This document shows, in pieces, positions 10,151 through 59,650 of a stretch of DNA of 64,000 nt. The stretch's first letter is position 1. Each line of letters begins with the position of its first letter. The DNA is taken from IMG/VR virus record IMGVR_UViG_3300042884_000193, positions 32,001 to 96,000 of that record. One strand, 5' to 3'. The translations under genes were made by a program, and so were the position numbers. The DNA comes from a virus. Under the pieces are notes generated by a model. It did not search any database, was not told the DNA's origin, and saw nothing but the letters and a program-made list of their open reading frames with translations.

Positions 10151-10206
10151 AATTATGTTATAAAAGTATTACAAAAGATTTAGATTTACTAAACCTCATA
10201 AATTTA

Positions 10207-13200
10207 TTAGGATTCCTCCTCGTATGGATTATAGTTATTTGGCTTTACAGTAGGGCTTGTATATACATTAGCAGCGGAAGCTCCAGGATACACCTGCATC
10301 ATCTGAGCAAGCATTGCTGTATTTAGAGCCTCTTTTGTTTTAGGTGTATTAGACCCTGTACCTTTGTAGTACGCTGATAATAAACCAGTCAACTCCTCAT
10401 TAGATAAACTTGAATACTTAGGATTCTTTCTTGCTGCTGCATATTGATCTAAAATAGTAGGCATTGAACTTGTAGCTTCTCCTGTTGGGGATTTACCATT
10501 AATCTGAGACATATATCCACCAGCCTCAGGATGTATCCAAAATTGATCACCATATACAGAATTAAGATTTTGAGTTTTCATCATATTGGTAACTCCTGCT
10601 ACTGTATTTCTAAGTAGGTTATTTAACTTAATCTGCTTATTCTTATCATAGATAGCCTTAGATCCTACTACATTAGTATAGTAATCAGCATCAGCCGCAG
10701 CTTGTAACTGGTCTCTTTGTTGAGCACCTTGGAAGTTAGCAGCCTCAGCAGCATTAGAGTATCCAATATTTCTTGCATCTACTTCTGATGCGTTCTGTGC
10801 AGCCTGATCCATAAGTTGTCCCATAAGACCTGATGAAATAGATGCTGCGGCACCTGGAGATTTTGCAAAAGCATTAACCCCCTCAGTCATACCACGTACC
10901 ATTCCTGATGCTACTTGATCCCTGTATATAGGTGATTCAAATTGTGGTGTCATATATGCATTCTGTGGTAAGCGTTGGCGTATTGGCATATACCGATTTA
11001 CCGGTTGCAATGCAGATGCTGCAATATTAAGTTGATCTTGTAACCAAGGTTTAGGTCCAGGTTGTCTGTAAGGAGTAATATCATTGTCTACTTCAATATC
11101 TCCAGCTTCTCCTGGAATGATTTCTTCATCGGGACCAAACTCAGTCATCTCTAATGATGGATCCATATTAATCAAATCATACTGACCTGAAGTAGTATTT
11201 GTATTATAGGAGTCAGCGGGACTTATCATTCCTGCTGCTGCAGATCCAGCAATATATTCATCGCCATAACCACGTTGTCCAATATCAAAAGGTTTTAATT
11301 TAGTTTGTAGTTCGGGAGCAAGATTTGCTTTATCAAACATTAAATCTTTATAGCCTATGTAGGCCATTTGCTCTGCAGCATTAGCTAAACGCTTATCAGC
11401 TCCTTCCTCATAGGGTACACCAATCTCCTTAGCTTTGTTATATAATGTTTTATTAGTAATATCCTTACCATCAGCATCAGTAGCATTATTACTACCTTTT
11501 ACATCAAAACCATGAGCCCAAAGTGCTAAGTTTCTTTTTTGATGTCTTAAGTGAATTTTGACTAACTCATCATCAGTCATATTTTTTATAGCATTTTTAT
11601 TAGATATGCCATAAGTACCTTTATAGTTTGCATCTTTATCAGCAGCAGCTCTAATTTTATCAGCAAATGCTTTTTTAATAGCAGGATCCTGGAAAGTATC
11701 CTCAAGCATTTGATACATGCCTGCAAACTTATCACTACCATTAAATACTTTAGCTTTATCAGAACCTTTGTATGCAGGGTATTTACCTGCAGTTTCTTTA
11801 AAATTAAAGTACTTACCATCAGCTCCCTTTACAAAGACTTTACTCTTATCTGTGGCCTCCCTGTATTCTTTTTCTTTACGGGCATTAAAGGTAGCATCAT
11901 CCTCATCTTCTTTTCTCTCAATAATAATAGCGCCCTCTGGTATATTATATTTAGTAATTACTTTATCGGGTGTTTTTGTTTTAGTTCTTCTTACAACATT
12001 AGGGTTGTTAACATCATAACCACCACCCCCGCCGCCATTATTATTATCACTACCGCTATCATTAATAAAACCTAAGTTAGGCTCCGTTGTTTCATAGATA
12101 TTACCATCAGCGTCCTCATATATATATAGGCCTTTTCTTCTGCTATATGTTTGCTTAACAATATTATCAGGATCAAATTTGTTACGACCTTTTTTAGCAT
12201 AAGGTATAAATCTGCCTAACTTGTCAGCAGCTCCACCTTTTGCAAATACTTGCATTCCATATTGAGCCATCATTTCCATATCAGCTGGCATCTCCTCAGG
12301 CATTTGCTCAGGCATTCCTTCTGGCATCTGTTGAGACATAGCCATTTCAGCTCCCATCTCATCAGGCATTTGTTGAGCAGAAGGGTCCATTCCTTCAGGA
12401 CTACCTTGTTGCATTTGTTCAACCACCTGAGATATAAGTTGCATTACTTGATCCTGAGGCATACCAATTTGCACAAAGATTTGTGCTACTGCTTGAGGAG
12501 GAACACCTTGCTCTAATAAAGCAGCAACAACTTCTTCAGGTTGTGCACCTTGTTGTAATGCTTGTGCTACTTGTGCCATCATCTGTTCCATTTGTCCACC
12601 ACCTCCACCTTGTGGTTGAGGAGGTCCTTGTGGGGGCATACCTTCTGGAGGCATACCTTGTGGCATCTCTTGCGGCATTCCCTGAGGCATTTGTTGCATC
12701 ATTGCTTCTGGTGGCATCATTCCTGGACCACCTTCTTGACGACGGATAAATCTATTTAATCCGCCACCTCTTGAAAATACTTGATAACCTAACATAGCTT
12801 GAGGCATTGCATTTGGATCATTTACTTGTTGTGCCATTTGCTCAGCCATTTGAGCTGATTCGGCATCTGGCATATTTTGTTGATCAGGATTAGCAGTCAT
12901 GTTTTGATCAAACTGTGCAGCCTGCTCTTGGTCTACTTGAGCCATAGAGTTTATCATGTCCTGATAAAAAGGAAGATCCTTTATTGACATAGCCGGAATT
13001 TCCATAGCTTGTCTATCAAGACTTAATGCAGCAATTGCTGGTTCAGCAATCTTAGGTATCTCATCATTCTTCTTGGACTCTTGAGCAATAGCCAACATAC
13101 CAAGTTTCTTTGTCTTGTTCTTTATATTTGCAATAAGGGTATCCATTGTCATTTTATCCTTAGTCTCCGTAGGATCCATAAGGTTAGCAATGTCTTTATT

Positions 13201-13641
13201 AATATCATACTTCTTTGCAATATCTGCAAATGTGTAACCACCCTTACGATCAGGTAAACCAAAGTATGCAAGAATACCCGCATCCATATCTTTAGTTTTC
13301 TTATTACCACCTAACTTAAAGTCTTTACCATGAAAGTCACTGAAGATAAAAGTCTCTGGTGGAACATTAAGAGGAACACCGCCCGCATTGTGACGAGGTC
13401 CGTTAATTTTATATTGAGTTAAAAAACCTGTTGCTTTATCAATTACTGCAGCAGTTTCCCCACCCTCAGCTTCAATATTAGCGTCCTCACGCTTTACCTT
13501 TTTAATACTATCTCTAAACTCCAAACTAGGATCAGCTAGATCACTTGTTATAAATGAGGGAGCTGCTTGATAATAATCAAGGTATGAGTTACCGCCTTTT
13601 TTAGCTTGAGGTAATTTTTTAATTTTAACTTTACGTATCAT
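10207..13641 (-). CDS. Virion cargo protein with M/Q/P-rich low-complexity region (1144 aa)
   Basis: N-terminal ANIEAEGGET...GPRHNAGGVP...FIFSD motif recognised as typical of crAss-like cargo proteins; MPQG/MPEG repeats; several xxGG motifs. Confidence 0.65.
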   Translation of the reverse strand: MIRKVKIKKLPQAKKGGNSYLDYYQAAPSFITSDLADPSLEFRDSIKKVKREDANIEAEGGETAAVIDKATGFLTQYKINGPRHNAGGVPLNVPPETFIFSDFHGKDFKLGGNKKTKDMDAGILAYFGLPDRKGGYTFADIAKKYDINKDIANLMDPTETKDKMTMDTLIANIKNKTKKLGMLAIAQESKKNDEIPKIAEPAIAALSLDRQAMEIPAMSIKDLPFYQDMINSMAQVDQEQAAQFDQNMTANPDQQNMPDAESAQMAEQMAQQVNDPNAMPQAMLGYQVFSRGGGLNRFIRRQEGGPGMMPPEAMMQQMPQGMPQEMPQGMPPEGMPPQGPPQPQGGGGGQMEQMMAQVAQALQQGAQPEEVVAALLEQGVPPQAVAQIFVQIGMPQDQVMQLISQVVEQMQQGSPEGMDPSAQQMPDEMGAEMAMSQQMPEGMPEQMPEEMPADMEMMAQYGMQVFAKGGAADKLGRFIPYAKKGRNKFDPDNIVKQTYSRRKGLYIYEDADGNIYETTEPNLGFINDSGSDNNNGGGGGGYDVNNPNVVRRTKTKTPDKVITKYNIPEGAIIIERKEDEDDATFNARKEKEYREATDKSKVFVKGADGKYFNFKETAGKYPAYKGSDKAKVFNGSDKFAGMYQMLEDTFQDPAIKKAFADKIRAAADKDANYKGTYGISNKNAIKNMTDDELVKIHLRHQKRNLALWAHGFDVKGSNNATDADGKDITNKTLYNKAKEIGVPYEEGADKRLANAAEQMAYIGYKDLMFDKANLAPELQTKLKPFDIGQRGYGDEYIAGSAAAGMISPADSYNTNTTSGQYDLINMDPSLEMTEFGPDEEIIPGEAGDIEVDNDITPYRQPGPKPWLQDQLNIAASALQPVNRYMPIRQRLPQNAYMTPQFESPIYRDQVASGMVRGMTEGVNAFAKSPGAAASISSGLMGQLMDQAAQNASEVDARNIGYSNAAEAANFQGAQQRDQLQAAADADYYTNVVGSKAIYDKNKQIKLNNLLRNTVAGVTNMMKTQNLNSVYGDQFWIHPEAGGYMSQINGKSPTGEATSSMPTILDQYAAARKNPKYSSLSNEELTGLLSAYYKGTGSNTPKTKEALNTAMLAQMMQVYPGASAANVYTSPTVKPNNYNPYEEES

Positions 13642-13652
13642 GTAATTAGTTA

Positions 13653-16028
13653 TTAATCTTCATATTCAATTTCACCACCGTTGCTGATAATATCATCTAT
13701 CATATCTTGTGTAAGATAGATTGAACCACCTACTTGTAATCTAGGCATTTGCATACCTCTTTGAGCAAATGCTCTTAATGGACCACTGCTGAACTGAACA
13801 GGAGATCCCGCTAAACCACCTCCCTCAGGAGCTCCTGTAAATGTATTATAACCAAGGCGATCAGCATCTCTTACATCTGGTGATGCAGACTCCGTGTTCT
13901 CTGGCATAAATGCATTTCTCATAGCTAGATCAGCATTTCTTTTCTCCTTACGATTAAAGAAAGGTGTCGCAATATTAGCAATACCTGAGTTAATAAGATT
14001 AAGTGTAGGTATTGCGTTAAATGGATTTTTAACTTTACCACTACCTGTAGCTGTTACACTTTTCTCAACCTCACGTTCCCCCATCGCATAGCTATTTTCT
14101 TTATTGGTACCATTAATATTAAGAGTTTGATCCTGAGAACCTACCATAAGTGGATTATCTGTCTTAGCTCCAATGAAATCAAAAAATGATTTTTTATCTG
14201 TTGCTTTACCAGGTTGGAATGGCCCAGTTGATGGACCAGGTCCACCAAAAATATCGGGTATACCAAAAGTACTAGGTCCATAATCACCTTTAAAACTTGG
14301 TAGTTGTGAGCCACCCATTTTCTTTTCACCCAAGTATTGTTTGCGCATATAAGAATGCCAACTTTCTTCCGTATCTGGATTTTTATTAGGTTGTCCTTTT
14401 ATCGGATAACTAACTCTTTGTTTATCATCTGCTGGTGGATTTACAGGTGGTTCATCCTTAGAGGGATCTACTTGTGGTTCTGTTTGTTTAGGTAAGTTAT
14501 TAATATCTATCTGCATTGATGTTCCAGGTATAGTGATCATACCTGATCCTGAGCCTGGTGCTGGTATATTTTTCATACCACTTCTATCAATAGGTCTTTC
14601 AGACTCTATCATAGCAGCTTCATTTTTAAGGAATTTTCTACCCATCCCTCTTAGATTTTTTCTATTAGGATCAATACCAGCTTCATTTAATAACTCACGA
14701 CGCTCACCCCTTGAAATATTTTGCCATAGATCAGGGCTTAGTTGATCAGTTTGCATTAAACCTCCTCCTGGAGATTTTGCATTTTGCGCATATACTTTTT
14801 CATTTGATGCTTTCTCCCAGTCATAGTTATCAAATACTGACTGACCTTCAGGAAGAACTGTTATACTTGTATCATAGTTTCTAGTATCAAACATTTTACC
14901 TATTCCTATTTTATCTAGAAGTTTCCCGGCTACTGTTGGATTTGCTGTAACAGATTTTTGAATTCTATCATAGTCACCACTATCTAAAGCTTCTTGAAGT
15001 TTTTGGCTAAACCCCTGATCATATTTAACACTGTCCTCATCTAAATCAAATTGCCTACCTTGACGTAATCCCATATAGTCAGCTAAACCCATTTCAGGAG
15101 CTGCCATTTGAGTTGTGGTAAATGGAGCATAGTTTCTTCCTGTAAGCATCTCAGGAGATGCACCAGGACCACTTAAGTCTGTGCCAGGCATCTTTAATCC
15201 TTGCATTATAGGATAGTTACTTATAAAAGAAAGATCGGGTGGTCCACCAAAAGATGGCACTTGATTATTTTTAAACGCCTCTCCTACTTGACTATAGTAG
15301 TTATTATACAACTCAGGTAATATCGCATTAAGCTGCTCATTTGTCAATTCACTAATGTCTGAAACATTAGCTTGTTGCATAATTTGATTTTGAGATTCTT
15401 GCGGTAAGCCTGCAAACAATTGTGATTGCCATGTCTGTCCATCAATCTGATATTTATGTAAGCTGGTCTTTCCGCCTTTTTGTTTTATTACACCACTAGT
15501 TTGATTTGTACCATCTGGAATGTACTCAGGTGATGATACACCAATAGACCAGTCATTTGGTGCAACTTGTTCTTGTTGAGTTGCAGCAGCTTCTTCTTTA
15601 TCCTTTGCTTCTTTTGCTGCTTTTTCTTGTGCTGACATATATTGATAATATGCAGGCGCAACAAAAGTATCAACTAAAGTTTGACCAATATTTTGTAAAC
15701 TGTTTGTCTTATATTTTTCAGCTGCTGTTACAAACAACTCGGGATGAGCTACTTTAGGATTTTCTAAACCAGGATAGCCATAAGGAGCTTGCCAAGGAAT
15801 TTGCCCTCTAACTTCAGCAGTCATCAAATTACCCATAGGCATTTGCTGAGGAAACTCAGGAACATGATTTTGTTCTAAGTATCCTTGAGCAGAAGCTACA
15901 AACTTCTGTATTTCTTCTTGAAGCTTTTTATTTTGAGCATCTTTTTTATTCTCGGTAACTCCTTTTACAAAGTTATCAAGACGCTGTTTAAAAAAGCCAT
16001 CTGGTTTTGTTATTGGTTTTATGCTCAT
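13653..16028 (-). CDS. Putative virion internal protein (791 aa)
   Basis: Long ORF in the cargo cluster; KQKGG, KKMGG and LQVGG motifs; ends in DIISNGGEIEYED. Confidence 0.55.
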   Translation of the reverse strand: MSIKPITKPDGFFKQRLDNFVKGVTENKKDAQNKKLQEEIQKFVASAQGYLEQNHVPEFPQQMPMGNLMTAEVRGQIPWQAPYGYPGLENPKVAHPELFVTAAEKYKTNSLQNIGQTLVDTFVAPAYYQYMSAQEKAAKEAKDKEEAAATQQEQVAPNDWSIGVSSPEYIPDGTNQTSGVIKQKGGKTSLHKYQIDGQTWQSQLFAGLPQESQNQIMQQANVSDISELTNEQLNAILPELYNNYYSQVGEAFKNNQVPSFGGPPDLSFISNYPIMQGLKMPGTDLSGPGASPEMLTGRNYAPFTTTQMAAPEMGLADYMGLRQGRQFDLDEDSVKYDQGFSQKLQEALDSGDYDRIQKSVTANPTVAGKLLDKIGIGKMFDTRNYDTSITVLPEGQSVFDNYDWEKASNEKVYAQNAKSPGGGLMQTDQLSPDLWQNISRGERRELLNEAGIDPNRKNLRGMGRKFLKNEAAMIESERPIDRSGMKNIPAPGSGSGMITIPGTSMQIDINNLPKQTEPQVDPSKDEPPVNPPADDKQRVSYPIKGQPNKNPDTEESWHSYMRKQYLGEKKMGGSQLPSFKGDYGPSTFGIPDIFGGPGPSTGPFQPGKATDKKSFFDFIGAKTDNPLMVGSQDQTLNINGTNKENSYAMGEREVEKSVTATGSGKVKNPFNAIPTLNLINSGIANIATPFFNRKEKRNADLAMRNAFMPENTESASPDVRDADRLGYNTFTGAPEGGGLAGSPVQFSSGPLRAFAQRGMQMPRLQVGGSIYLTQDMIDDIISNGGEIEYED

Positions 16029-16234
16029 TATCCGTAATGTGAAAGGTCTTGTTTCATTTTAGTAAAGAGGTCTGCGCCAAGTTTCATCTTAGGCAGATCT
16101 TGAGGCATTGTGTACTGACCCATTGGGTTGTACATAGCTGGTCCTCCTTCTTGCATAAAGAAGTATCTTCTATCATAAGTTCCTCCCTCGGACATTACAA
16201 TAGGGACACCAAAAAGGTTCTCGTAGTTATACAT
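16028..16234 (-). CDS. Small protein made largely of xEGG / LPKMKLG motifs (68 aa)
   Basis: Fills the gap between two genes; TAATG overlap with the downstream gene. Confidence 0.6.
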   Translation of the reverse strand: MYNYENLFGVPIVMSEGGTYDRRYFFMQEGGPAMYNPMGQYTMPQDLPKMKLGADLFTKMKQDLSHYG

Positions 16235-16271: not shown

Positions 16272-19200
16272 TTAGTTAGTTTTCCTAGAGTTTGTCCATG
16301 CTGCTTCAAAGTAATTGTCTAGTGATTTATGATCTCTTGGTTTAGCAGTACCTCCTAATTTTTTAACAGAATTAGTTAACGTAGAAATTTCACCCTCAAG
16401 GTTATATAAGTTAAGTAACTCATCTGGTGTAAGATTTTCAAAACCTCTTCCAACAAGACTGGCAAATTCTTTTCGTGCAGCATCTAATCTTTTAGTAGCT
16501 TCAGCTCCTGTTAATTGTACAGCTGGTTTAGAAACTGCAGAATTTGATCTATACAGTGGGTGTTTTTCAGGTATGCGATCAAATGCATTAAAATGTTCTC
16601 TTAGTTTTTCAATAACCAGATCTGGATTTTGATATGATATTCCTTGTGCGGGTTTTGAAACATCATAAATATCTACAACATTTTTTGTATCATTGTATCT
16701 AAAGTTACCTCTAAGATTATCAACATCTAAGAAAAACCCCCTAGACATTAAATCTCGTGCATCTGCTTCTAATTTATTTAGGACTTCTTCTTTTGTGAGG
16801 TTTTGGAATTTTCCGGTTCTATTTAAATTTGGCATTATTTCAATAAGACCGCTGCCATCTTTATGTGCTCTTTTAACAACAGCTATATTATCACCTATAA
16901 CACCTTCAAAAGATTTTAGTAAATCGTCAACGTTATCTGTTTTAAATGTCTGACCTACTTTGATAACATGACCTGGATCATCAGCTAATTCAAAAACCAT
17001 ACCTTCAGCACCATTACCAAGACTTCTACCTAAAGGAGAGTTAGGTTGTATATTTTGTTCTTCTAACAAAGTTCTAAACTCTTTTGCTTGGTCTCTGCCT
17101 ATTCCCCAGGCATCAGAAAAATTGCTACGTGTATCAAAAGGACTACCTTTAATTTTAGCTCTTCCTATATCAGTTAAATCCTCAGCTAATTTATATTGCG
17201 CACTCCATCTATTATTATAGGCTTTCCAATAATCAGCAAATTGAGCAAGATCTATATCATCTGCTTTTCCACCAGTAAGAGTTACAAAGTTTTCAAGCAT
17301 TTTAGCTTCTGCATCAGCCTTTACTTTACCTATTAAAGGATCCCAATTTAATTTAGATGCATCTTTTATTTCTCTATACCCCATTAAAAAATTAGGTTTC
17401 GCTTTATAAGCAGTGTAATTTCTTTCAGAGTCTGCTAGGAATGCTTCTTTTCCTTTTCCTACTATTTTACTTTCTGCATTTGCAATATCAAATGCTAAAG
17501 GATTATATTTATAAATATTACTTACAAAATTATTTGTTGCATTCATTGCAGGTTTTGCAAGCTCATATCCTGCTTTTAATACAGGAGCTGCAAAAGGTGC
17601 TATTTCTAAAGCAGTTATTAAATTTTCAGCAAAAGCATTTGCATAATCAAGGGGATTACCCGTATCATTAGCATGTCGCCAAGGTTCGAGAGCTTGACCG
17701 CTTTGTATAGTTTTTAAACCATGTACTCCAAATCCGTAAGTTAAAGCATTACCTGCATTAAGCCAAGGAACAGCTTTTGGAGCTGCATTTAGAAGTTGTC
17801 TTCCACCAGCTACTGTAGCTTGAACAAGTGGTGATGATGCCGCTGCACCATATACCAATTCTCCAAGTCCTGCTAAGCCTGCTTCTCCAAGAGCAACAGG
17901 AGCCATTAATAAACTTTCAAAAATAGGAACACTTGGTAAACCTGCTGGATCATTAATAGGGGCACGTCTGAAGTTTTTTATATCTTTTTTTCTCTGTTCT
18001 TCTTCTACCTTTTCTTTATCAAACCTGCTTCTTCCTTCTTGTAGATCTATAATAGAAGCAAGTTCAGGGCTAATCTTTTTTTCTTCTATCTTCTCATACT
18101 CCGGTATTTGATCTGCAGGAATACCTTTAGCAATTCTTTGTTGACGAATTACATCAGGTACTCTAGCATAACCTTTCCTACCCCAATTAGATGCTTCATA
18201 TTCTTTTACTGAATTCCACCCCATAGCTTGAGCTCGCCTATTAAGTTCCATATTTTCAGCAACAGATTTACTAGAATCATAGCTAAAATCAAAGTCACCA
18301 CCTTCTTCTGCTTTAGGTAGCTCACCTCCTTCCTTTAGAGGTTTTATAATAAGATTGTTAAGACCATTTTCCTTACTGCTACCAATAACTTTAAAACCTT
18401 TAGGTATATTACCCATTATTTCTTTTTCTGAAATTGCACCACTATTAAGCCCTGTTTTAGGATTCCAGATAAAAGGTATTCTTTTATCACTATACGGCAT
18501 TCCGGCAAAGTTACTTCCTAAACCTTTGGTATATCTACTAGGGACAACAAGTCTTGTATTTCCAAAAGCGCTTAGGTCACCTGCTCCTGGAGTACCCACA
18601 CTCCAAGTTCTAATAGTTTTTTCGGTAGGAGTATTAAATACATCTCCTGCTTTTAGTCCTTCAAGTAATTTATTTTCTGCTGATCCACGTTCATAATAAC
18701 CAAGAATTCTAGAAATAGGGTAATCAGCTTTACTAAAATCAGTAGCGCCGGATCTTGTAAAGTCTTCCATTTGTGCCCATTCTTCAGGAGTTAATTTCAT
18801 ACCCTTACCAAATTTATCTAATAATCCAGCTTGAGCATCAGTATAAGTCTTTGGTATATAGCCTGAAGATTTAATTGGAAAATTAGGTCTTTCAACTTTC
18901 CATGCTGGAAAACCAAAATCTGTTAAACGAGAATTTCCTGTAGCAACTTTGTTATAAACTTTTCCTGCACTTTTAACTAAGGGTCCTGCAGTCATTCTTG
19001 CAGAGTTTATGGCCATTCCCAAAGGTTTTACGATAGGGGCCGCCTCCAGTGCCTCCGAGGCCATATTAATTAAACCTTCTTTAGTTGTCCATGACTCAGG
19101 TTGAAGTGCAGCATTAGACAATCTATAAGCAGCATTTGCATAAAAAAAAGGATTAGCATATTGAGTTACATCTGAAAAGGCATCTCCATCTTCCCTATAC

Positions 19201-20528
19201 CCATAGTTACCAAGATTACCTTGAGGAATATATCCATATTTCATTGCATGCCCAGCAGCTTCTATAGGATTACTTAAAGCATAATAAATTTGATTAACAG
19301 TTTCCTGGGCAGGAGTTGTTCTTTTAGCGGTGAGTGTATCATGTCTATTTAATTTTTCATATGCTTCACGTTCTTTTTCTGCTTTAATACGTGCCTCTTC
19401 TGCTCTCACCTCAGCTAAAATCTGCGGACCAGTTTTACCTTCCCATTCTAAAGGAGGTTTGAACGTATTAGCAGGCATAGTAGATTCTGCTACAGCAAAT
19501 CCTGATATTAAATCCTGATTCATCTTTTTTATATCAGCTTTTAAAGAAGATGAAGAAGTAGTAGTTTTTGATTTTGCTTTAGGAGGTAGTGTAGAATACC
19601 CAGGTATACCTTCCATTACTTGTTGATCCCAAGTTTGTTGTTTTGGTTGAGCTTTAATTATACCTATACCCGTTCCTTGTCCTTTAGTAAAGTGAGTTTT
19701 CTCTGGCTGCCATGCCCAACCTGATGCTTCATACTCACCAACAGAGTTATGACCAGCTGCTTCAGCTCTTCTATTAAGCTCAGCATTTTCTTTAGGGCTT
19801 TTTCTCCAATCGTAACTAGGTTTAAAATTAGGATTAGAAAATTGACCCTCAATTTGCATCCTATGTAAAGGACCACCTTGTTTTTTTCTTTCTACATAAC
19901 GCATTCTCTGTATCTCAGGATCAAATATTAAGTTTTGATTTTTACCGCCCCAGTTGCGATCATTACTTAACATAAAGTCCTTATACTCCATCCAACCTGT
20001 ATCGCCAGGTTTATTCTCTCCTGGAATATGTGACTTTAACCAAACACCTGTATTAGGGTTAGTGCTAAAACCATGATAATAACCATCACCAGGATCCGGT
20101 TGCCATTGAGGATAATTTGCTAAAGCCTCTTCAAAATTCTTAGGTTTACCTAAGGCATCCCACATGCCATAGTGATCATATTGTCTAGGATTTCCATATT
20201 GCCACTCAGCATCAGGTCTTCTATTCTCAGGTGCAGTTTCACTATATTTTAAAAACGCTTCATAATCATTAGGTAGTCCTTGTTGAGCTTGAGGTAACTT
20301 CTCTTCTATAACACCTACAGCTCCTGGAAATGTATAGCTAGGTACACCCGGTATCATGGTAATAGGATTACCATACATATCATTTGGATATACGGGTGTA
20401 GCCTTTACATGTTTTTTAACACCGGTCATTGTAAGGTTAGAACTTGGTACATATAGTTTATCCAAGTTCTTATCCTTGCTGTTTTCTTTGTAACCGGTTG
20501 TGCTAACCTTTAATTTCCGTGCTGCCAT
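16272..20528 (-). CDS. Multidomain cargo-type protein with ADP-ribosyltransferase-like and protein-kinase-like domains (1418 aa)
   Basis: ART-like R-S-E motifs ISRIL / RTWS / EKE (~18335-18800); kinase-like GNGAEG, VIK, DNLRGN, IYD (~16580-17040); internal 35-aa repeat. Confidence 0.75.
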   Translation of the reverse strand: MAARKLKVSTTGYKENSKDKNLDKLYVPSSNLTMTGVKKHVKATPVYPNDMYGNPITMIPGVPSYTFPGAVGVIEEKLPQAQQGLPNDYEAFLKYSETAPENRRPDAEWQYGNPRQYDHYGMWDALGKPKNFEEALANYPQWQPDPGDGYYHGFSTNPNTGVWLKSHIPGENKPGDTGWMEYKDFMLSNDRNWGGKNQNLIFDPEIQRMRYVERKKQGGPLHRMQIEGQFSNPNFKPSYDWRKSPKENAELNRRAEAAGHNSVGEYEASGWAWQPEKTHFTKGQGTGIGIIKAQPKQQTWDQQVMEGIPGYSTLPPKAKSKTTTSSSSLKADIKKMNQDLISGFAVAESTMPANTFKPPLEWEGKTGPQILAEVRAEEARIKAEKEREAYEKLNRHDTLTAKRTTPAQETVNQIYYALSNPIEAAGHAMKYGYIPQGNLGNYGYREDGDAFSDVTQYANPFFYANAAYRLSNAALQPESWTTKEGLINMASEALEAAPIVKPLGMAINSARMTAGPLVKSAGKVYNKVATGNSRLTDFGFPAWKVERPNFPIKSSGYIPKTYTDAQAGLLDKFGKGMKLTPEEWAQMEDFTRSGATDFSKADYPISRILGYYERGSAENKLLEGLKAGDVFNTPTEKTIRTWSVGTPGAGDLSAFGNTRLVVPSRYTKGLGSNFAGMPYSDKRIPFIWNPKTGLNSGAISEKEIMGNIPKGFKVIGSSKENGLNNLIIKPLKEGGELPKAEEGGDFDFSYDSSKSVAENMELNRRAQAMGWNSVKEYEASNWGRKGYARVPDVIRQQRIAKGIPADQIPEYEKIEEKKISPELASIIDLQEGRSRFDKEKVEEEQRKKDIKNFRRAPINDPAGLPSVPIFESLLMAPVALGEAGLAGLGELVYGAAASSPLVQATVAGGRQLLNAAPKAVPWLNAGNALTYGFGVHGLKTIQSGQALEPWRHANDTGNPLDYANAFAENLITALEIAPFAAPVLKAGYELAKPAMNATNNFVSNIYKYNPLAFDIANAESKIVGKGKEAFLADSERNYTAYKAKPNFLMGYREIKDASKLNWDPLIGKVKADAEAKMLENFVTLTGGKADDIDLAQFADYWKAYNNRWSAQYKLAEDLTDIGRAKIKGSPFDTRSNFSDAWGIGRDQAKEFRTLLEEQNIQPNSPLGRSLGNGAEGMVFELADDPGHVIKVGQTFKTDNVDDLLKSFEGVIGDNIAVVKRAHKDGSGLIEIMPNLNRTGKFQNLTKEEVLNKLEADARDLMSRGFFLDVDNLRGNFRYNDTKNVVDIYDVSKPAQGISYQNPDLVIEKLREHFNAFDRIPEKHPLYRSNSAVSKPAVQLTGAEATKRLDAARKEFASLVGRGFENLTPDELLNLYNLEGEISTLTNSVKKLGGTAKPRDHKSLDNYFEAAWTNSRKTN

Positions 20529-23500
20529 TATCTAGGTGAGTAAAGAAGTTTATTGTTTGTAATTTTAAGAGTCATCAACATTTCCCTTGGTGCCTGCTTA
20601 ATCAACAATACGTGATTAGAGTAGTGACGGAATTTCTTCCTCTGTAAAGGAGGCTTTTGATAATTCATATTATTAGCATTCAAGGTTCTAATGTAGCCAT
20701 TTTCTTGAGTATCCCAAATAGGTTGTTGTACAAGTACTCCACCCACTTGATACTCACCACGATCATTAGTAATATCCCAGAATTGGTTGAATCTATATTT
20801 GTTCTCCTCTTTAGAGAATATGATATCTATACTATTAAAGTTAATAATAGGATAGCTAATCATTGCAAATGGATTATTCTTAGGCTTAATAAATAGGTTT
20901 AATAATCCAGATACCTGCTCCGTATTAAATACAACAGCCTGATCAAAGTTTCCATCTAGTATATGAAATTGGTCAATACCATTAGCTGCTACTTTATAAC
21001 ACTCTAGCATATATTCAAGGCTTCTTGTGGTATTTACTATCTGTCCTGTTTGAGCTATATACTCTACTTCAAATGAGTAGTCTAGACCATAGAAGTTACA
21101 ATATAAATCCCAGCGATAGTTATGTCTCCAAATATCTTTACCTTTAGTACTATAAAAGTCAATAGGTGCTGACATAGTTAAATCAGGATGCCAGTCGTGG
21201 AATGATACCCAATACTTTTGTTTAGGGTCATAGCTTACAGTCCAAGAGGCATCTTCAAAATACAAAGGATCACCTAGATAGATATTAGTACGTACAGGTT
21301 TTCCATTTATAATGGGGTAGAATATATTGTCACTTATATAGGTTATAGGATTAGGTGCATCTTCACGTAACTTATAATCCTTCTTACAGAAATATACAAC
21401 TTGGTCTTGGTTATCAAATATTGTTTGACAGCCGATACCTATTACTGGATTATCTGTTAAAGCAAATGTAGGGAAGTCTTGTAATAGACGGTAAGGTAAG
21501 TAATAAGCAAACCACCATTTCAGTCCAGCATTTGATATTTCCTCTAAGCCCTCACCGTATGCAAAGACTTTTCCTTGGCTCTGACTCATCCAATATAATC
21601 CAAATGGTGTTGTAGTTACTGACCATTTATTTTGACAAGCTCCATATTGGAATGCATTCTCTGTATTAGATATACTTTGAGGATCTGTAGAGAACAGACC
21701 TCCATCACCTAATATAATTTTAGTATTAAGCTCTGTTTGAAGAACATCCTGACCAGCATAAAGCAATGGACTAGCATCTTTAAATAACACAGCAAATCCT
21801 GTTTTGTTAACAGGCTTAATCATCAAAGGTCTGTTAGCGTAATCTACATAGTTCATTGCTAAGAAAATATTCCAAGTATCTTTTGGAGCATCATTTTTAA
21901 ATGGCAATGAGTATATAATCCTATTAGGCATATATGTAAAACATGATGCTGATACTGCTGGATTATAATACGGAAATTGCATTTGACCCCATGAGTTGAA
22001 ATTAGACATTAGATAACTTACTCCTAATGAATAATCATACTTATAGTAATTACCAAACTTGATAATCTGTGTATCAAACATTTGAGCTAAGTCTGTATAT
22101 GTATACTCATCGTAATGTCTGCGGGCTGGTTCATTATCCCAGTCGCGGCATGCTAGATTAATCTCAGACTCAACATAGAAATCTCTAACACTTGAATTAA
22201 ACAAATACATATATGCATCTTTTAATCCAAATACAAAGTTTGCAGCATTGAAACCAGAGCCAAATCCTCCCATATTTTCGGGATCAGCAGCATCATCAAT
22301 TGCAGCCTGATCTACTGTAATACTAGTAGTTGTTGTTGTTTGTGTAATGTACGGGGGACAACCATCGCAACCAGGTTGAAATCCTCCGGCTGTGTAAACA
22401 CCATTGTCCCAATAAGCAGGATTGGGAACTGTCTCAGTTGTTGTCGTTGATGATGTATTAGCAAGATCTGGTGATTCTATACCATTACCACCTTGAATTT
22501 CAGTAATTCCAGCAAATGGATTTCCTCCAACTCCCCTATCTAAGTGGTGTAAGTTACTAGGTATCTCCCATGCGTCAGGATGTATAAGATTTTGGAACAC
22601 AGATGATATAAAGCCAGAAACCTCAAACTCAGTAAAGTCAGCCCAATATCTAGGGAAACCTAACATATAATAATTAGCATAGTTAAACTCAGTGCCATCA
22701 GGTACATTATACAACCAGTCCCTAAAATAAAAGAAAGTATTCTTTTCGGTATAGCGTCCTACATAAGTATCGCCACCAAATAATACAGGACTTGTAAATC
22801 TAGTATTAGTATTTGTAAGGGGAATATTATTATTAACTATTATCTTACAAGGTATAGGTATTTGTCTAACTCCATTTAATTGCCCATATTGATTTACGAG
22901 TCTTACTTTAAGACCGGCATAAAAACATGATGCTGATGTCCCAAACTCTGGAAGAGGGCTATTATCATGATCCCAATCAGATGAAGAAACAGCAGAACCA
23001 AAATGACTACCAATAGTTTGTGCAGTATTGTCTAGTATATTAGGGTTATTTACTGCTGCTGTAACATGTAGAGCTACTGTCCTATGTCTGTTTAGATTAT
23101 TTATTTTATAGTAAGTTCCGTTATCTGTAAAGAAGTTTTGTACACTGGGATCTAAATACATAGACTTATCAATGTATCTTCTTGTATTGCCATAAATAGC
23201 GTTACCTGTCCAATGATGATGTAGGTTACCATGACTTAAATATCTCCAAGCATATTGACGATATTTAACTAAAGCTTTAATAAGATCTATAGCCACATTC
23301 ATACCTTGGCTAAAGTATTGAGCTGTTAATACAAGCCCTGTTGCAATACGTAAAAATTTAGGTAATGATTGCAGATCTGTATTTTCATTTTCTTTCTTAT
23401 ACCTATTTCCCTGATAACCAGCCACCTGTGCAACTTCGGAAGCCAAATAGGCAACTGCCATATTCATCGGGCTATCTAACTGAGGACCTCCTACTGATGC

Positions 23501-25855
23501 AGATGCTAAGTTTAAAAAAGAGCTACCTGCGATATTTAAAGGTATAACTGTACCACTTTGTAATGCTGCAATTAGTCCACTATTATAAGCATTTAAAGAA
23601 GCAGTGCCTTCTACAGATTCTTTTTTCTTACCTGCTATATGAACAACAATTGCTTCAGCGATACCCGTTAAACATGCTACAATAAATGCTAAGTCAGTAA
23701 GTAACTTATGTCTAGGATGTCCAGGAACAGGTCTAAACTTACCCCTTACATTATAACCAAACTCATCAGAATTTTGAGATATCTCTGTATAGATTTTAAG
23801 TTCTGTTGGGGATAAGTAAGGATTTCTAAAGTTAGTTTCTGGTGAGTGAAATGTAAAAAGATTTTGGCTATAAAATTTTATATCAGATGCTGATGTAGTT
23901 ACACCAGGCCCATAAAAATAAATTTCATTAGTATCATTAACACCCCCATTAGTTTCGTCATTAACAATAGCAGGATCTACATATAATGGATTAAAAGGAT
24001 AGTTTTGAAATAAACCAATTGTAGTAGGCTCACTTGAGCCATCTACATCACTAACATTTTGTAACTTATAAGTACGCATGTTATTAATGATACCTTTTGC
24101 AAGTACTGTTTTATTACCTACACGAGTACCTCTTAATATTTCATAGCCTACAATACTAGGTATTATGTTACCATAATTATCTACAGGTGGTTTTATATTA
24201 TCAAAAGTAACACCTAGCAATCTTATATATTGAGCTTTACCTAATGAGTCAGTTCTAACATGTGTGTAGCTATCATTTATCACACCGTTAGCTGGTCCGT
24301 TAAATGTGTTAAGTAAATCGGCTGGCATCTTATGGTGTCGTATCGGCTTACCACAAAGATCATAATCAAAACTATTAGTAGTTCCACCAATGTTTACTCC
24401 TGTATCAGGATCTGTATATGTAGCATTCCAGATATTGGGTTTATTATCTGGATAAATCTCAGATGATTCCCAGTAACCCATATCACCTTGAGCAATTACT
24501 ACACCTCCATCAGGTAGTGTATAGTTAGTTGGTGTAAAGGTTGCTGTATTATATACCTCCCATCTTTTAGGTATATAGGGCTCCATAGGATCCCCAGCTT
24601 CAATAGCATCAATATTATTTACAACAAAGTCTTGTCCTGTTGCAATATTATATTCTATAAAAGGCTTACGCGCGCGACCCGGTATATGATAAGATGAACT
24701 TGTCTCGCCCGTATCATACACCCACCTAATCCAAAAAGCATATTGCTCATCACGCATATATCCAACATTGGTTCCTGCTTTTTCATAGTAGGTATGTGGG
24801 TACTCGGTCATTACCCACTGTGTTGAAATCTGATTTGCTAAAGGTTGATAGTTGAAATCAAATCTTCCTGTAGGTGCAATTCTAAATAAATACTCAGAGC
24901 TTGCTGCCATTGTATCTGATTTCTCATAAGGAAAGTTTCTATATGGTATTAGGGCCAATGGTATAGAGGGTAAAGACTCCTCTAAATTATCTATTGACAC
25001 ATATTTTGTACGAGTACTATAAGTACCAAATCTTTTAGCTGAACTATTAGCAGCCACCATCCTAACTACAACAAGTTCAAACTCATCATAGTTATCTTGA
25101 TCTAAGTTACTAAAGGTAATATCTAAAGATCCTTGTAAGTTATCGTGATTAAATACAGCAACAACATTACTTGGAGAAAAATAATCAGTAGCCTTTACTC
25201 CATTTATAGTATATGCGATTACAACAAAGTAAGATCCATTAAGTAATGTCCCTCCAGTTGTTCCAATATCCATTGACATACAAGGTGAATGCGCATGTGA
25301 TATAAGTCTTATTGCATCACAGTCTAATTGATTTGTAGGTGTGCATATAATACAACTATCAATAGTAGTACAGTTTTGGATATACGGAACATTATCTACA
25401 TTTAAAGATCTATCAGGATTTAATCCGTCTGCCCAGTATAATTGCCAGCTGCAATCAAAATTAAGTTTAGCAGCTCCAGTAATAAGATTACTTTGACTAA
25501 AACTTAAGCAATCATCATTAACAACTTTTATATAAGCATCAGTATCTCCACATTTTGCAGTATCAAAAAGACCAACCTCAGAATGAATATTATCTGTAGA
25601 GAAAATACCCCAAGTGGTATCGTGCATATATACAGCACCAATAACAGTATAAGGAGCAGAAGCACATAACAAGGTAGCCTGCTCAGTACTCAAGGTACCT
25701 AACTGTCCCTCATTTGTATTGTTTACAGCATTACGCGCATGTGACCACGCCCCTTCGGGAAAGAACACTTCATCATAGTCTTTAGTAAGACCTTTATTAA
25801 ATGTACTTGTATTAACTTCTGATCCTGCATTTGAAGGGCCTTCTTTCTTTGCCAT
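20528..25855 (-). CDS. Tail stabilisation / muzzle protein (P22 gp10-like position in crAss-like phages), 1775 aa
   Basis: Starts FNKGLTKD...WSHARNAVN; contains GYMRDEQYAF, FGGDTYVGRY and WTVSYDPKQKYWVSFHDW motifs; follows two ring-protein genes. Confidence 0.7.
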   Translation of the reverse strand: MAKKEGPSNAGSEVNTSTFNKGLTKDYDEVFFPEGAWSHARNAVNNTNEGQLGTLSTEQATLLCASAPYTVIGAVYMHDTTWGIFSTDNIHSEVGLFDTAKCGDTDAYIKVVNDDCLSFSQSNLITGAAKLNFDCSWQLYWADGLNPDRSLNVDNVPYIQNCTTIDSCIICTPTNQLDCDAIRLISHAHSPCMSMDIGTTGGTLLNGSYFVVIAYTINGVKATDYFSPSNVVAVFNHDNLQGSLDITFSNLDQDNYDEFELVVVRMVAANSSAKRFGTYSTRTKYVSIDNLEESLPSIPLALIPYRNFPYEKSDTMAASSEYLFRIAPTGRFDFNYQPLANQISTQWVMTEYPHTYYEKAGTNVGYMRDEQYAFWIRWVYDTGETSSSYHIPGRARKPFIEYNIATGQDFVVNNIDAIEAGDPMEPYIPKRWEVYNTATFTPTNYTLPDGGVVIAQGDMGYWESSEIYPDNKPNIWNATYTDPDTGVNIGGTTNSFDYDLCGKPIRHHKMPADLLNTFNGPANGVINDSYTHVRTDSLGKAQYIRLLGVTFDNIKPPVDNYGNIIPSIVGYEILRGTRVGNKTVLAKGIINNMRTYKLQNVSDVDGSSEPTTIGLFQNYPFNPLYVDPAIVNDETNGGVNDTNEIYFYGPGVTTSASDIKFYSQNLFTFHSPETNFRNPYLSPTELKIYTEISQNSDEFGYNVRGKFRPVPGHPRHKLLTDLAFIVACLTGIAEAIVVHIAGKKKESVEGTASLNAYNSGLIAALQSGTVIPLNIAGSSFLNLASASVGGPQLDSPMNMAVAYLASEVAQVAGYQGNRYKKENENTDLQSLPKFLRIATGLVLTAQYFSQGMNVAIDLIKALVKYRQYAWRYLSHGNLHHHWTGNAIYGNTRRYIDKSMYLDPSVQNFFTDNGTYYKINNLNRHRTVALHVTAAVNNPNILDNTAQTIGSHFGSAVSSSDWDHDNSPLPEFGTSASCFYAGLKVRLVNQYGQLNGVRQIPIPCKIIVNNNIPLTNTNTRFTSPVLFGGDTYVGRYTEKNTFFYFRDWLYNVPDGTEFNYANYYMLGFPRYWADFTEFEVSGFISSVFQNLIHPDAWEIPSNLHHLDRGVGGNPFAGITEIQGGNGIESPDLANTSSTTTTETVPNPAYWDNGVYTAGGFQPGCDGCPPYITQTTTTTSITVDQAAIDDAADPENMGGFGSGFNAANFVFGLKDAYMYLFNSSVRDFYVESEINLACRDWDNEPARRHYDEYTYTDLAQMFDTQIIKFGNYYKYDYSLGVSYLMSNFNSWGQMQFPYYNPAVSASCFTYMPNRIIYSLPFKNDAPKDTWNIFLAMNYVDYANRPLMIKPVNKTGFAVLFKDASPLLYAGQDVLQTELNTKIILGDGGLFSTDPQSISNTENAFQYGACQNKWSVTTTPFGLYWMSQSQGKVFAYGEGLEEISNAGLKWWFAYYLPYRLLQDFPTFALTDNPVIGIGCQTIFDNQDQVVYFCKKDYKLREDAPNPITYISDNIFYPIINGKPVRTNIYLGDPLYFEDASWTVSYDPKQKYWVSFHDWHPDLTMSAPIDFYSTKGKDIWRHNYRWDLYCNFYGLDYSFEVEYIAQTGQIVNTTRSLEYMLECYKVAANGIDQFHILDGNFDQAVVFNTEQVSGLLNLFIKPKNNPFAMISYPIINFNSIDIIFSKEENKYRFNQFWDITNDRGEYQVGGVLVQQPIWDTQENGYIRTLNANNMNYQKPPLQRKKFRHYSNHVLLIKQAPREMLMTLKITNNKLLYSPR

Positions 25856-27431: not shown

Positions 27432-27433
27432 AG

Positions 27434-28015: not shown

Positions 28016-28090
28016 AACGTATACTACAATTTACAAAATTTCTTTCAGGTTTGAAAGATAATACATAATTGATTACTAGACAAGTAGTAG

Positions 28091-28117
28091 AAAGCCCCCA
28101 AGTTGTACTTGAGGGCC
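28091..28117 (-). terminator. Probable intrinsic terminator
   Basis: Minus strand GCCCTCAAGT-ACA-ACTTGGGGGC followed by a short TTTCTAC tail. Confidence 0.55.
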
Positions 28118-28120
28118 CCC

Positions 28121-28156
28121 TGGTTTAGTCACGAATAAACCAACAAACGTAGACTA
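28121..28156 (-). promoter_or_regulatory. Hairpin with loop antisense to the phage leader motif
   Basis: Minus strand TAGTC-T-ACG[TTTGTTGGTTTATT]CGT-GACTA, then AACCA; see findings. Confidence 0.5.
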
Positions 28157-58000: not shown

Positions 58001-58099
58001 CTCGTAACAAATATAGCGTAAAATTGTTACCACACTATAGTATGTTTTAATAGTCATTAACCCCAATTTCACAGGCTAATGCATAGTATATCATACTTT

Positions 58100-58990: not shown

Positions 58991-58994
58991 ACAA

Positions 58995-59633: not shown

Positions 59634-59650
59634 TCCTCGGCCTCACCTAT

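Follow-up and report, generated by a model that had tools for sequence, protein, structure and literature searches.

The window analysed here is a stretch of 64,000 nucleotides from a crAss-like phage, the source genome being a complete virus record of 119,556 bp with terminal repeats. On the minus strand, an uninterrupted open reading frame with an ATG start (16272..20528) encodes a protein of 1418 aa, which confirms the gene called in the first-pass annotation. Its start codon overlaps the stop codon of the upstream gene within the sequence TAATG. The product of this upstream gene, which fixes the slot, matches the muzzle protein model PF25731 crAss_MUZ (E 5.6e-30, 104.7 bits at a cut-off of 27) and also phrog_37948, a virion structural protein. 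The major capsid protein encoded in the same-strand operon matches crAss001 gp32 (7qof, E 3.2e-4) and phrog_11589 (E 3.1e-32). The 1418-aa gene lies in a virion operon immediately after the muzzle gene, in line with the first-pass interpretation. An ORF of 68 aa is located downstream of it. A search of a 50,697-record phage collection with the 1418-aa protein yielded no match. The chain runs from an N-terminal leader through module A, cassette 1 and cassette 2 to a C-terminal cap. Both cassettes open with a joint made up of a degenerate tag and the 38-aa repeat R, continue through a helical spacer with NPxxYxNA...LExxP at its end (the pre-tip motif) and finish with an enzyme-like tip closed by K-x-GG:

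20528..25855, minus strand: crAss muzzle protein gene (1775 aa), directly upstream
20298..20528, minus strand: N-terminal leader, aa 1-77, with the degenerate tag ...EEKLPQAQQG at its end
19872..20297, minus strand: module A (previously termed the first domain), aa 78-219, with ERKKQGG at its end
19716..19871, minus strand: joint 1, degenerate tag GGPLHRMQIEGQFSNP with the first copy of R behind it (aa 234-271, window 19716-19829; R profile E 3.4e-23)
18957..19715, minus strand: cassette 1 spacer, aa 272-524, a Ser/Thr/Lys-rich stretch and a charged helix leading to the pre-tip motif in its long form
19035-19154, minus strand: long-form pre-tip motif NPFFYANA...ALEAAP of cassette 1, aa 459-498
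18324..18956, minus strand: tip 1, aa 525-735, predicted R-S-E ADP-ribosyltransferase (ART) fold (R607, S643, E701, E703), with LKEGG at its end
18183..18323, minus strand: joint 2, tag GG-ELPKAEE-GG with the second copy of R behind it (aa 745-782, window 18183-18296; R profile E 2.8e-24)
17532..18182, minus strand: cassette 2 spacer, aa 783-999, comprising a charged helix, an Ala/Gly-rich stretch and the short-form pre-tip motif
17595-17657, minus strand: short-form pre-tip motif NPLDYANA...ALEIAP of cassette 2, aa 958-978
17067..17531, minus strand: helical and small-strand subdomain preceding the kinase, aa 1000-1154 (AF2 model, block pLDDT mostly 86-97)
16539..17066, minus strand: tip 2 core, aa 1155-1330, predicted minimal protein-kinase fold (G1171-x-G1173-x-x-G1176, K1190, D1268, N1275, D1289)
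16350..16538, minus strand: helical end piece of cassette 2, about 60 aa (aa 1331-1393), with VKKLGG at its end
16272..16349, minus strand: C-terminal cap TAKPRDHKSLDNYFEAAWTNSRKTN (aa 1394-1418) and stop codon

The two copies of R share 65.8% identity over 38 aa (E 3.4e-10), and all remaining internal matches of the protein had E >= 15. The 35-aa repeat claimed to head both cassettes is therefore present twice, in the form of this 38-aa element. At the DNA level, only 70 of the 114 nucleotides and 17 of the 38 third positions are identical in the two copies, and R has therefore been kept at the protein level. K-x-GG terminates the ART tip (aa 732-735) and the kinase cassette (aa 1390-1393), as had been described, and module A (aa 216-219) ends in the same way. 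Both pre-tip motifs, which had been presented as matching, were found and each is kept within its own homologue family, but a profile–profile comparison of the two motif-bearing spacer segments (hhalign) gave a non-significant E of 0.28. Of the proposed duplicated delivery module, there remain the elements common to both cassettes (R, the brief motif before the tip and the closing K-x-GG), whereas overall homology between the cassettes is lacking.

The homologues of the protein are mosaics. Each of the 65 collected sequences (808-2316 aa) covers between 6 and 75% of the query, module order varies, and related phages shuffle the modules at conserved joints. Matches to the leader are confined to the N-termini of homologues (e.g. 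residues 1-90 of P0003 at 93% and 1-84 of P0061 at 92%; 17 homologous segments were collected). Module A is the most widespread module, occurring at any chain position in 29 homologues with 54-88% identity and about 57 invariant columns. It matched nothing in Pfam, PHROG, NCBIfam or the PDB sequences, and nothing above 0.79 in the ESM Atlas. Homologues of the cassette 2 spacer are found in P0008, P0010, P0023, P0028 and P0042. The end piece of the same cassette recurs behind other modules in P0024, P0077, P0079, P0082 and P0092, and in 20 copies in P0075. The C-terminal cap also stands behind the last x-GG in P0012, P0013 and P0020, whose last module differs. Behind 20 instances of the pre-tip motif we found nine different tip families, and either form, long or short, can stand before one and the same family, so that the variable tips expected from a homologue collection do occur behind conserved elements. 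The domains detected were Glucosaminidase (4) and Phage_lysozyme2, SLT and ART-PolyVal (1 each) in one scan of 24 homologues, and LysM (2) and SLT, YkuD, ADPrib_exo_Tox, ART-PolyVal, SET and GNAT (1 each) in another of 36. Cell-wall hydrolases in the same chain are sensible only for a protein that exits the virion upon infection.

The joints follow a strict pattern. R occurs in 71 copies in 61 of the 138 collected proteins, and a GG lies within 45 aa upstream in 50 of 61 copies, as against 22.8% of 12,905 background windows; 27 of these 50 copies have K at position −2. The tag pattern gave 46 matches in 32 of the 138 proteins, where shuffled sequences predict 0.06, and GG precedes it by at most 14 residues in 43 of the 46. 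The sole internal exception (P0026, position 247) has GG 15 residues before the tag. In relatives the tag reads VKIKSLPKAQ, and the tags of the 1418-aa protein itself are degenerate by comparison. A tag also forms the N-terminus of a 1144-aa gene product of the window, MIRKVKIKKLPQAKKGG, of the product of the gene after the L004 homologue, and of L021, P0042 and P0122.

Such boundaries might also mark a polyprotein from which a phage or host protease, cutting after each K-x-GG in maturation or after ejection, would free tag-headed units. T4 internal proteins and the core polyproteins of adenoviruses and asfarviruses are cleaved at fixed short sites of this kind. Every module of the 1418-aa protein is closed by K-x-GG, GG stands before R and the tag at the frequencies given above, and cutting after GG would create N-termini such as TIKQVKIKSLPKAQ, mirroring the start of the stand-alone genes, MRKVKIKSLPKAQ. 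Behind the kinase end KKLGG stands the terminal cap in the 1418-aa protein, but a joint with the tag IKQVKIKSL in P0004. Iyer et al. (PMC5512222) moreover proposed, in the part of that paper considered here, that polyvalent proteins are processed to give functional units. On the other hand, the three protease families searched (Peptidase_C48, Peptidase_C39 and prohead protease S78) are absent from the whole genome at E <= 1, cleavage is not mentioned in the passages of the crAss001 paper used here (PMC10172136), and GG may be a mere structural terminator of modules. We consider proteolytic processing rather unlikely.

Structure prediction and fold search, which had been proposed for both tips, pointed to an R-S-E ART fold with conserved catalytic residues for tip 1 and to a protein-kinase fold, likewise with conserved catalytic residues, for tip 2. 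R-S-E transferases carry the Arg on strand 1, a motif of the Ser-x-Ser type on strand 2 and, ahead of strand 5, Glu-x-Glu. The motifs claimed for tip 1 were found at ISR 605-607, RTWS 640-643 and EKE 701-703 and are invariant in all 24 aligned sequences. In the model, R607, T641-W-S643 and E701-x-E703 fall on strands 106-109 and 141-145 and at positions 202-204, respectively, the middle motif being T-W-S instead of S-T-S. Tip 1 as modelled combines the ART fold with the three-motif set of the R-S-E clade (C3/VIP2/iota/ExoS/Alt type), and its fold matches in BFVD include phage VIP2 proteins, MuF-like ART fusions and ModB. Neither tip matched any Pfam, PHROG or NCBIfam model. ADPrib_exo_Tox (PF03496) was matched neither by the full protein (P0001, which at E <= 1 gave a chance hit to CSN8 only) nor by tip 1 alone. 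ART-PolyVal (PF18760) was not found in the 1418-aa ORF; elsewhere in the genome it matches two frames only, of 3182 aa (E 3.5e-8) and 2097 aa (E 0.002).

Tip 2 is, according to the structural model, a minimal NleH/OspG-like protein-kinase fold. All kinase motifs claimed for it are in place (GNGAEG from 1171, VIK to 1190, DNLRGN 1270-1275 and IYD to 1289), and G1173, G1176, V1178, K1190, N1275, N1279 and D1289 are invariant in all 36 sequences. However, the Asp of DNLRGN (D1270) is variable, the near-invariant Asp in these 36 sequences being D1268. Judging by the order of secondary-structure elements, these residues would represent the glycine loop, the strand-3 Lys, the catalytic-loop Asp and Asn and a DFG-like Asp. 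The usual spacing between Asp and Asn in the kinase catalytic loop is 5; in tip 2 it is 7, which is unusual among protein kinases. Kinase-PolyVal (PF18762) was detected neither in the whole phage genome (E <= 10) nor among the 36 relatives (E <= 0.001).

The position of the gene is that of cargo protein C1 (gp45) in crAss001, an equivalence drawn from gene position alone. As with gp45, the gene lies immediately downstream of a muzzle gene, and at L001, L003 and L004, i.e. for every homologue with DNA context, a muzzle gene is likewise followed by a giant, variable gene (of 2286, 1075 or 1423 aa). According to the passages of Bayfield et al. (2023, Nature, PMC10172136) drawn on here, crassvirus cargo is held in the capsid and tail and ejected from the N- to the C-terminus, and gp45 is expected to help form a trans-envelope channel. 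Both proteins have an Ala/Gly-rich hydrophobic stretch, which in gp45 is a predicted helix. In the 1418-aa protein, the stretches at aa 860-910 and 963-990 are of moderate hydrophobicity (Kyte–Doolittle peaks of 1.47 and 1.31), under that of typical membrane helices. Both proteins also have GG followed by a short helical element, the gp45 family carrying YGG four residues before the tail-barrel-bound helix 214-245 in the portion of the source used. BLAST with gp45 and gp46 of crAss001 revealed no similarity to the 1418-aa protein; the R profile aligned with gp45 220-238 at no better than E 3.7, and hhalign gave P 0.057 for a pre-chosen segment but no match when the whole protein was used. Unlike the two-enzyme chain of 1418 aa, gp45 has 842 aa and no enzyme domain annotated in its record.

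The shared slot, the channel role expected of gp45 in the cited part of PMC10172136, the Ala/Gly-rich stretches and tips without a match to any enzyme family model would all suit a structural ejection or channel protein, a C1-like ejectosome component whose tips are binding or pseudo-enzyme domains and do not modify the host. Against it, the R, S and ExE residues of the transferase are invariant in 24 of 24 sequences that are otherwise 49-83% identical, and in the kinase the same is true of the glycine loop and of the Lys, Asn and Asp (36 of 36 sequences, otherwise 20-85% identical). Pseudo-enzymes usually lose their catalytic residues. A purely structural role is in our opinion improbable.

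The tip folds match those of secreted bacterial toxins and effectors, and a conserved carrier with swappable tips is typical of polymorphic toxins. The phage could accordingly carry the gene as a passenger, coding for a polymorphic toxin or a contact-dependent effector of bacteria for which the virion has no use. This seems very improbable, since the gene is translationally coupled by TAATG to the muzzle gene in the late operon of a phage whose genome is complete, the homologues with DNA context all follow muzzle genes, the tips are both internal and terminal, and a Pfam search of the protein found no secretion domain. Polymorphic toxin systems have an N-terminal domain for secretion or trafficking, one toxin tip at the C-terminus and a neighbouring immunity gene, a layout at odds with these last two features and with the virion-operon context. 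NleH1/2, OspG and HopBF1 are bacterial type III effectors and not phage proteins; the likeness of tip 2 to them is at the level of fold only, and its catalytic loop, unlike theirs, has extra residues between Asp and Asn. T7 gp0.7 is synthesised after infection and is not packaged. T4 Alt has an N-terminal capsid-targeting peptide that is cleaved. Tip 1 shares the R-S-E-type ART fold, as predicted, with Alt and with the MuF-ART and VIP2-like phage head proteins, its own virion location being deduced. In contrast to these single-enzyme proteins, the ART of this crAss-like podovirus forms one bead in a chain of several enzymes.

The known class that the protein resembles most closely in its make-up is that of polyvalent proteins, phage proteins of several enzymes that are predicted to enter the host by injection, which include ARTs and truncated kinases in Bacteroidetes phages and prophages and for which cassette-like recombinational variability has been raised (Iyer et al. 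2017, J Bacteriol, PMC5512222, as far as the part of the paper used here goes). Disparate activities are predicted in one polypeptide (ART and kinase folds within 1418 aa; lysozymes, GNAT, SET and ART-PolyVal in homologues), and the gene lies in a late same-strand operon with those of the major capsid and muzzle proteins. Polyvalent proteins are typically encoded among late or virion phage genes of the portal-terminase type, or else among conjugation genes. Because of the muzzle-adjacent slot and the mosaic homologues of such modules, we place it among the polyvalent proteins as defined by Iyer et al. (2017). The claim of an undescribed system does not stand, as both the class (PMC5512222) and crassvirus cargo (PMC10172136) are described in the parts of these papers considered. 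The 1418-aa protein differs from described polyvalent proteins in the R-S-E-type ART as an internal module and in that the derived Pfam models, ART-PolyVal and Kinase-PolyVal, miss both tips. An R-S-E transferase, its activity being predicted, looks new as a module of a polyvalent protein. The undescribed part appears to be the conserved inter-module joints. The strict order of K-x-GG, VKIKSLPKAQ tag, repeat and pre-tip motif seems to be new, as do stand-alone cargo genes beginning with the same tag; in the text of PMC5512222, supplement aside, we did not meet the joint syntax (K-x-GG, tag, R, pre-tip motif, C-cap) in the portion used.

Taken as a whole, the gene probably encodes a polyvalent protein of the first cargo slot (the gp45 slot), with modules of ART and kinase fold shuffled at joints, which is packaged, injected and modifies the host. 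Packaging in the capsid and injection are most likely, judging by the gene position. During assembly, the 1418-aa protein would be loaded into the cargo space of capsid and tail, the VKIKSLPKAQ-type tag, which also heads stand-alone cargo genes, most likely serving as an address or docking label for the loading of each unit. At infection, the chain would be threaded out through the tail, N-terminus first and before the DNA, and its moderately hydrophobic Ala/Gly-rich stretches may help to cross or line the envelope. In the cytoplasm it would refold, and the transferase and kinase could modify host proteins in favour of take-over or to blunt defence, as with T4 Alt and T7 gp0.7.

We tentatively suggest that the joint (K-x-GG, the near-invariant VKIKSLPKAQ and often R) is a loading or docking code in a clade of crAss-like phages, although we would not rate this as probable. 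Every tagged unit, whether a separate gene product or a bead in a chain, might then be recognised by one virion partner (the portal, tail-barrel ring proteins or a GG-specific protease), with R as the counterpart of the gp45 helix that lies along the inside of the tail barrel. If this reading is true, any enzyme could be swapped into a standard socket, stored in order and injected before the DNA.

The gene under study (window 16272-20528, minus strand), whose product is termed P0001, is a single open frame of 1418 codons with an ATG which overlaps the stop codon of the upstream gene as TAATG, and it belongs to a long minus-strand late operon. The source virus record is complete (119,556 bp, direct terminal repeats; full genome G000), with the window covering its bases 32001-96000. 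The features relevant to the position of P0001 are the following (window coordinates unless marked G000).

39493-41112, minus strand: major head protein of the same operon, 539 aa (phrog_11589, E 3.1e-32; crAss001 capsid gp32, 7qof, E 3.2e-4)
Directly upstream of P0001: crassvirus muzzle protein, 1775 aa (PF25731, E 5.6e-30, 104.7 bits, cut-off 27)
25858-28699: putative small ring or hub proteins; the portal is expected among the large ORFs lying upstream of the capsid gene
16028-16234, minus strand: 68-aa ORF downstream of P0001, with two x-GG motifs (MSEGG, MQEGG) and LPKMKLG, which resembles the tag described below
Downstream of the 68-aa ORF: three proteins (791, 1144 and 1172 aa) and, last, a frame leaving the window
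10207-13641, minus strand: the 1144-aa cargo-block protein, N-terminus at 13591-13641
1-191, continuing past the left edge (G000:C1:31805-32191), minus strand: the window-leaving frame, 3182 aa in the full genome (ART-PolyVal, E 3.5e-8)
G000:C1:16450-16785: 2097-aa frame (weak ART-PolyVal match, E 0.002)

The ART-PolyVal matches in the 3182-aa and 2097-aa frames indicate that the phage has several polyvalent giants. The 1144-aa protein had no Pfam or PHROG match, and the 68-aa ORF could represent what is left of a joint, or else a small cargo peptide. The order of a muzzle gene (~1770 aa) followed by a variable gene is kept in three related viral contigs (L001, L003 and L004), where the post-muzzle gene encodes 2286, 1075 or 1423 aa. 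In crAss001 the muzzle gene gp44 directly precedes gp45 (cargo protein C1), and next come C2 and the subunits of the virion RNA polymerase (Bayfield et al. 2023, PMC10172136). Elsewhere in the window, which contains no tRNA, G+C reaches up to 0.469 at 58000-60000 as compared with ~0.35-0.39 in the rest, and transcription turns to the plus strand there.

The first-pass annotation had assigned an ADP-ribosyltransferase (ART) and a protein kinase to the two cassette tips on the basis of short motifs, all of which were found at the positions it gave, and we have now confirmed both folds by structure prediction and fold search. The AlphaFold2 model of tip 1 (aa 500-745) had a mean pLDDT of 82.0 and a pTM of 0.79. 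All 50 Foldseek matches listed from the PDB were ADP-ribosyltransferases of the R-S-E type (Tre1, ExoS/ExoT, VIP2, C3, iota, CDTa, C2-I, Certhrax, SpvB and Vis); the best one was 6drh_F (E 8.9e-5), and nine were found at E <= 0.001. Among viral models, phage VIP2-like proteins, MuF-ART fusions and ModB were matched. In the alignment of P0001 with 23 homologues (49-83% identical), R607 (within PISR), I639-R-T-W-S643, E701 and E703 were invariant in all 24 tip 1 sequences. The Pfam families ART-PolyVal and Kinase-PolyVal matched neither tip of P0001.

The model of tip 2 (aa 1000-1418; pLDDT 86.3, pTM 0.70) gave protein kinases in every Foldseek match listed, 31 of them at E <= 0.001. The folds matching in size were those of the minimal effector kinases NleH2 (4lrk, TMt 0.57), OspG (0.47-0.50) and HopBF1 (0.43). 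In the model, strands bearing the glycine loop and the Lys come first, then one helix, a pair of strands and a long helix, followed by the loop LDVDNLRGN, the strands FRYN and VVDI, and YD; this predicted order is consistent with a kinase core whose C-lobe is reduced. A phmmer search of the full library yielded 42 relatives at E <= 0.001, most of which match query positions 156-297 only, i.e. the core at aa 1155-1296. Residues G1173, G1176, V1178, K1190, M1232, N1275, N1279 and D1289 were invariant in a 36-sequence alignment and G1171, D1268, N1271 and D1286 nearly so. We infer that D1268 is the catalytic Asp, N1275 the metal-binding Asn and D1289 the DFG-like Asp; D1270, proposed earlier as the catalytic residue, is unconserved in this alignment. 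The ~60-aa helical end piece of the kinase cassette (aa 1334-1395) was also observed with 20 matches in the homologous protein P0075 (3291 aa).

P0001 as a whole matched nothing in PHROGs, NCBIfam or PDB sequences; its sole Pfam match was at chance level (0.21), and no relatives were detected by tblastn and megablast in a collection of 50,697 phage records. A word-indexed search found 65 homologues of 808-2316 aa, each spanning just 6-75% of P0001. Mapping of their BLAST segments defined the following modules.

Leader, aa 1-77: N-terminal in every case
Module A, aa 78-219: ~30 proteins, 54-88% identity, at any position in the chain
Repeat R (described below): one to three copies
ART tip: in 23 proteins
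Spacer of cassette 2 (hydrophobic): in ~10 proteins
Kinase cassette: in 4 proteins
C-terminal cap, 25 residues: terminal in every case

In the ESM Atlas, the top score for module A (0.79) was under the chance level of the Atlas itself. The homologues carry further enzymes. Pfam detected Glucosaminidase in four of the 24 ART-bearing sequences and Phage_lysozyme2, SLT and ART-PolyVal in one each. Among the 36 kinase-core sequences, LysM was found in two, and SLT, YkuD, ADPrib_exo_Tox, ART-PolyVal, SET, GNAT and DUF5872 in one each, while the homologues P0010, P0019, P0028, P0042 and P0016 had no Pfam family. A module with the HERSHW motif (HExxH pattern; consensus of alignment A5) occurs in many homologues and is absent from the window; this module may represent a peptidase of the zincin-like type inside the same chains, with possible relevance to self-processing.

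The two cassettes, previously regarded as a duplicated delivery module, are not duplicates of each other. Whole-protein self-BLAST of P0001 gave the identity match alone, and the 38-aa repeat R became visible only when the halves were compared: its copies at aa 234-271 and 745-782 share 65.8% identity across 38 residues (E 3.4e-10), and all other internal pairs had E >= 15. R is not a recent duplication. Its DNA copies agree at 70 of 114 positions (61%) and at 17 of 38 third positions, and this low identity argues that R is kept by selection on the peptide; the same figures rule out R as a site of recombination at the DNA level. The R profile detected 71 copies in 61 of the 138 collected proteins and 56 clusters (178-1967 aa) in a database search; a region-restricted word search using R found 5 proteins only. 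In this genome, R is present in two copies, both inside P0001. The R profile gave nothing significant among PDB sequences; the best match, the SPOR-domain amidase 1x60 (E 0.57), was treated as chance. An R-like copy (E 9.2e-10) was noticed at residue ~221 of the product of the gene after the post-muzzle gene in contig L001 (16915-20889, plus strand), which shows that R also occurs outside the first cargo slot.

R stands in a conserved context. A GG pair lies within 45 residues upstream of 50 of the 61 R copies, which are related to one another, as against 22.8% of 12,905 background windows, and in 27 of these 50 cases Lys is found two residues ahead of GG; given the relatedness of the copies, the binomial p-value overstates how independent they are. 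Between GG and R, most relatives have the nearly invariant tag VKIKSLPKAQ. A loose tag pattern matched 46 times in 32 of the 138 proteins (0.06 expected from shuffles), with GG no more than 14 residues ahead in 43 of the 46; the only internal exception is position 247 of the homologue P0026, where the distance is 15 residues. P0001 itself has degenerate tags, namely EEKLPQAQQG behind the leader, GGPLHRMQIEGQ behind module A and GGELPKAEEGG behind the ART. The chain end obeys this rule as well: P0001 and the homologues P0003, P0005 and P0006 have KKLGG ahead of the cap AKPRDHKSLDNYFEAAW; in P0012, P0013 and P0020 the last module in front of this cap is a different one, and in P0004 the same KKLGG continues into IKQVKIKSL. 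The tag also opens separate proteins, namely the stand-alone 1144-aa protein (MIRKVKIKKLPQAKKGG, window 13591-13641) and the product of the gene after the P0001 homologue in contig L004 (MRKVKIKSLPKAQ), and it is likewise N-terminal in L021 and in the homologues P0042 and P0122.

Processing of the P0001 chain by cutting at K-x-GG would also fit this joint syntax, but the three protease families tried (C48, C39 and S78) had no match in the genome. Since separate cargo genes also begin with the tag, it is best read as a putative address or docking label. The tag DNA pattern was found in 4 stretches of the viral-contig collection and each of two scans for related loci found 4 loci, which marks the clade as rare in this collection. 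Motifs of the [KR]-x-GG type were also seen to be frequent in other proteins of the cargo block (window 6632-16028, minus strand). The GG motifs are KTKGG, AEKGG, KLRGG, QKAGG, RPRGG and YVRGG in the 1172-aa protein, AKKGG, FKLGG, DRKGG, FSRGG, RQEGG and FAKGG in the 1144-aa protein, and KQKGG and KKMGG in the 791-aa protein.

The idea of a conserved carrier with a swappable tip is supported, since the 20 instances of the pre-tip motif that were examined, with P0002 left out as a fragment of the same protein, precede nine tip families, and in two clusters both forms of the motif occur ahead of the same tip family. These forms are a long one, NPxx[YW]xNAAYR...SWTT...LExxP, and a short one, NxxDYxxA...LExxP. 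The regular expression was written from the same sequences, and the counts thus reflect conservation within families, not kinship of the forms. The two matching motifs noted earlier in P0001 are indeed present, each conserved in its own family, but their kinship was not borne out, as profile-profile alignment of long and short segments gave no significant homology (hhalign, E 0.28).

The sole, weak match of the R profile in crAss001 gp45 (residues 220-238, E 3.7) falls inside helix 214-245, which Bayfield et al. 2023 (PMC10172136) resolved at the inner tail-barrel wall. With hhalign, P was 0.057 on a pre-chosen segment and nothing was found with the whole protein; the match falls short of significance. 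The gp45 family has YGG four residues ahead of the barrel helix. A relationship between R and this helix may be considered a lead only.

The first-pass annotation had proposed an undescribed system. The mosaic multi-enzyme family matches the polyvalent proteins of Iyer et al. 2017 (PMC5512222), and the system is therefore of a known kind. The same survey reports kinases without the C-terminal subdomain and cassette-like variability for polyvalent proteins of Bacteroidetes (pro)phages, and it states that the R-S-E clade of ARTs had not turned up among polyvalent proteins. In contrast to the proteins described there, P0001 has an R-S-E ART as an internal module. Our literature search found no paper joining 'Crassvirales' with 'polyvalent protein', and the papers listed for crAss-like phages, ADP-ribosyltransferase and virion were reviews or unrelated, judged by title and abstract.

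The analysis shows the folds, the conservation of catalytic residues, the position of the gene, the mosaic make-up of the family and the syntax of the joints, and it gives good support to the view of P0001 as a real polyvalent cargo protein that combines an R-S-E ART with a minimal kinase. P0001 would most likely be packed into the particle's cargo space and pass out through the tail from N to C ahead of the DNA, as proposed for gp45 (PMC10172136). The Ala/Gly-rich stretches of the protein, with Kyte-Doolittle peaks of 1.47 and 1.31, may aid passage through the envelope, and the transferase and the kinase, once refolded, would modify host proteins. Ejection is supported by the cell-wall hydrolase modules of sister proteins, since such enzymes can be of use only during entry, once outside the virion.

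The crAss-like phages rank with the most abundant of all known phages, and, to our knowledge, little of what they inject apart from their RNA polymerase has been described. P0001 shows that enzymes predicted to modify the host, here an R-S-E ADP-ribosyltransferase and a minimal kinase, can occupy the first cargo slot. The joint syntax provides a testable handle on the loading and ordering of cargo and on the plugging in of new effectors, with a 10-residue tag which is identical across diverged proteins and also starts stand-alone cargo genes. If the tag is a packaging address, cargo genes would be predictable from sequence alone in uncultured phages.
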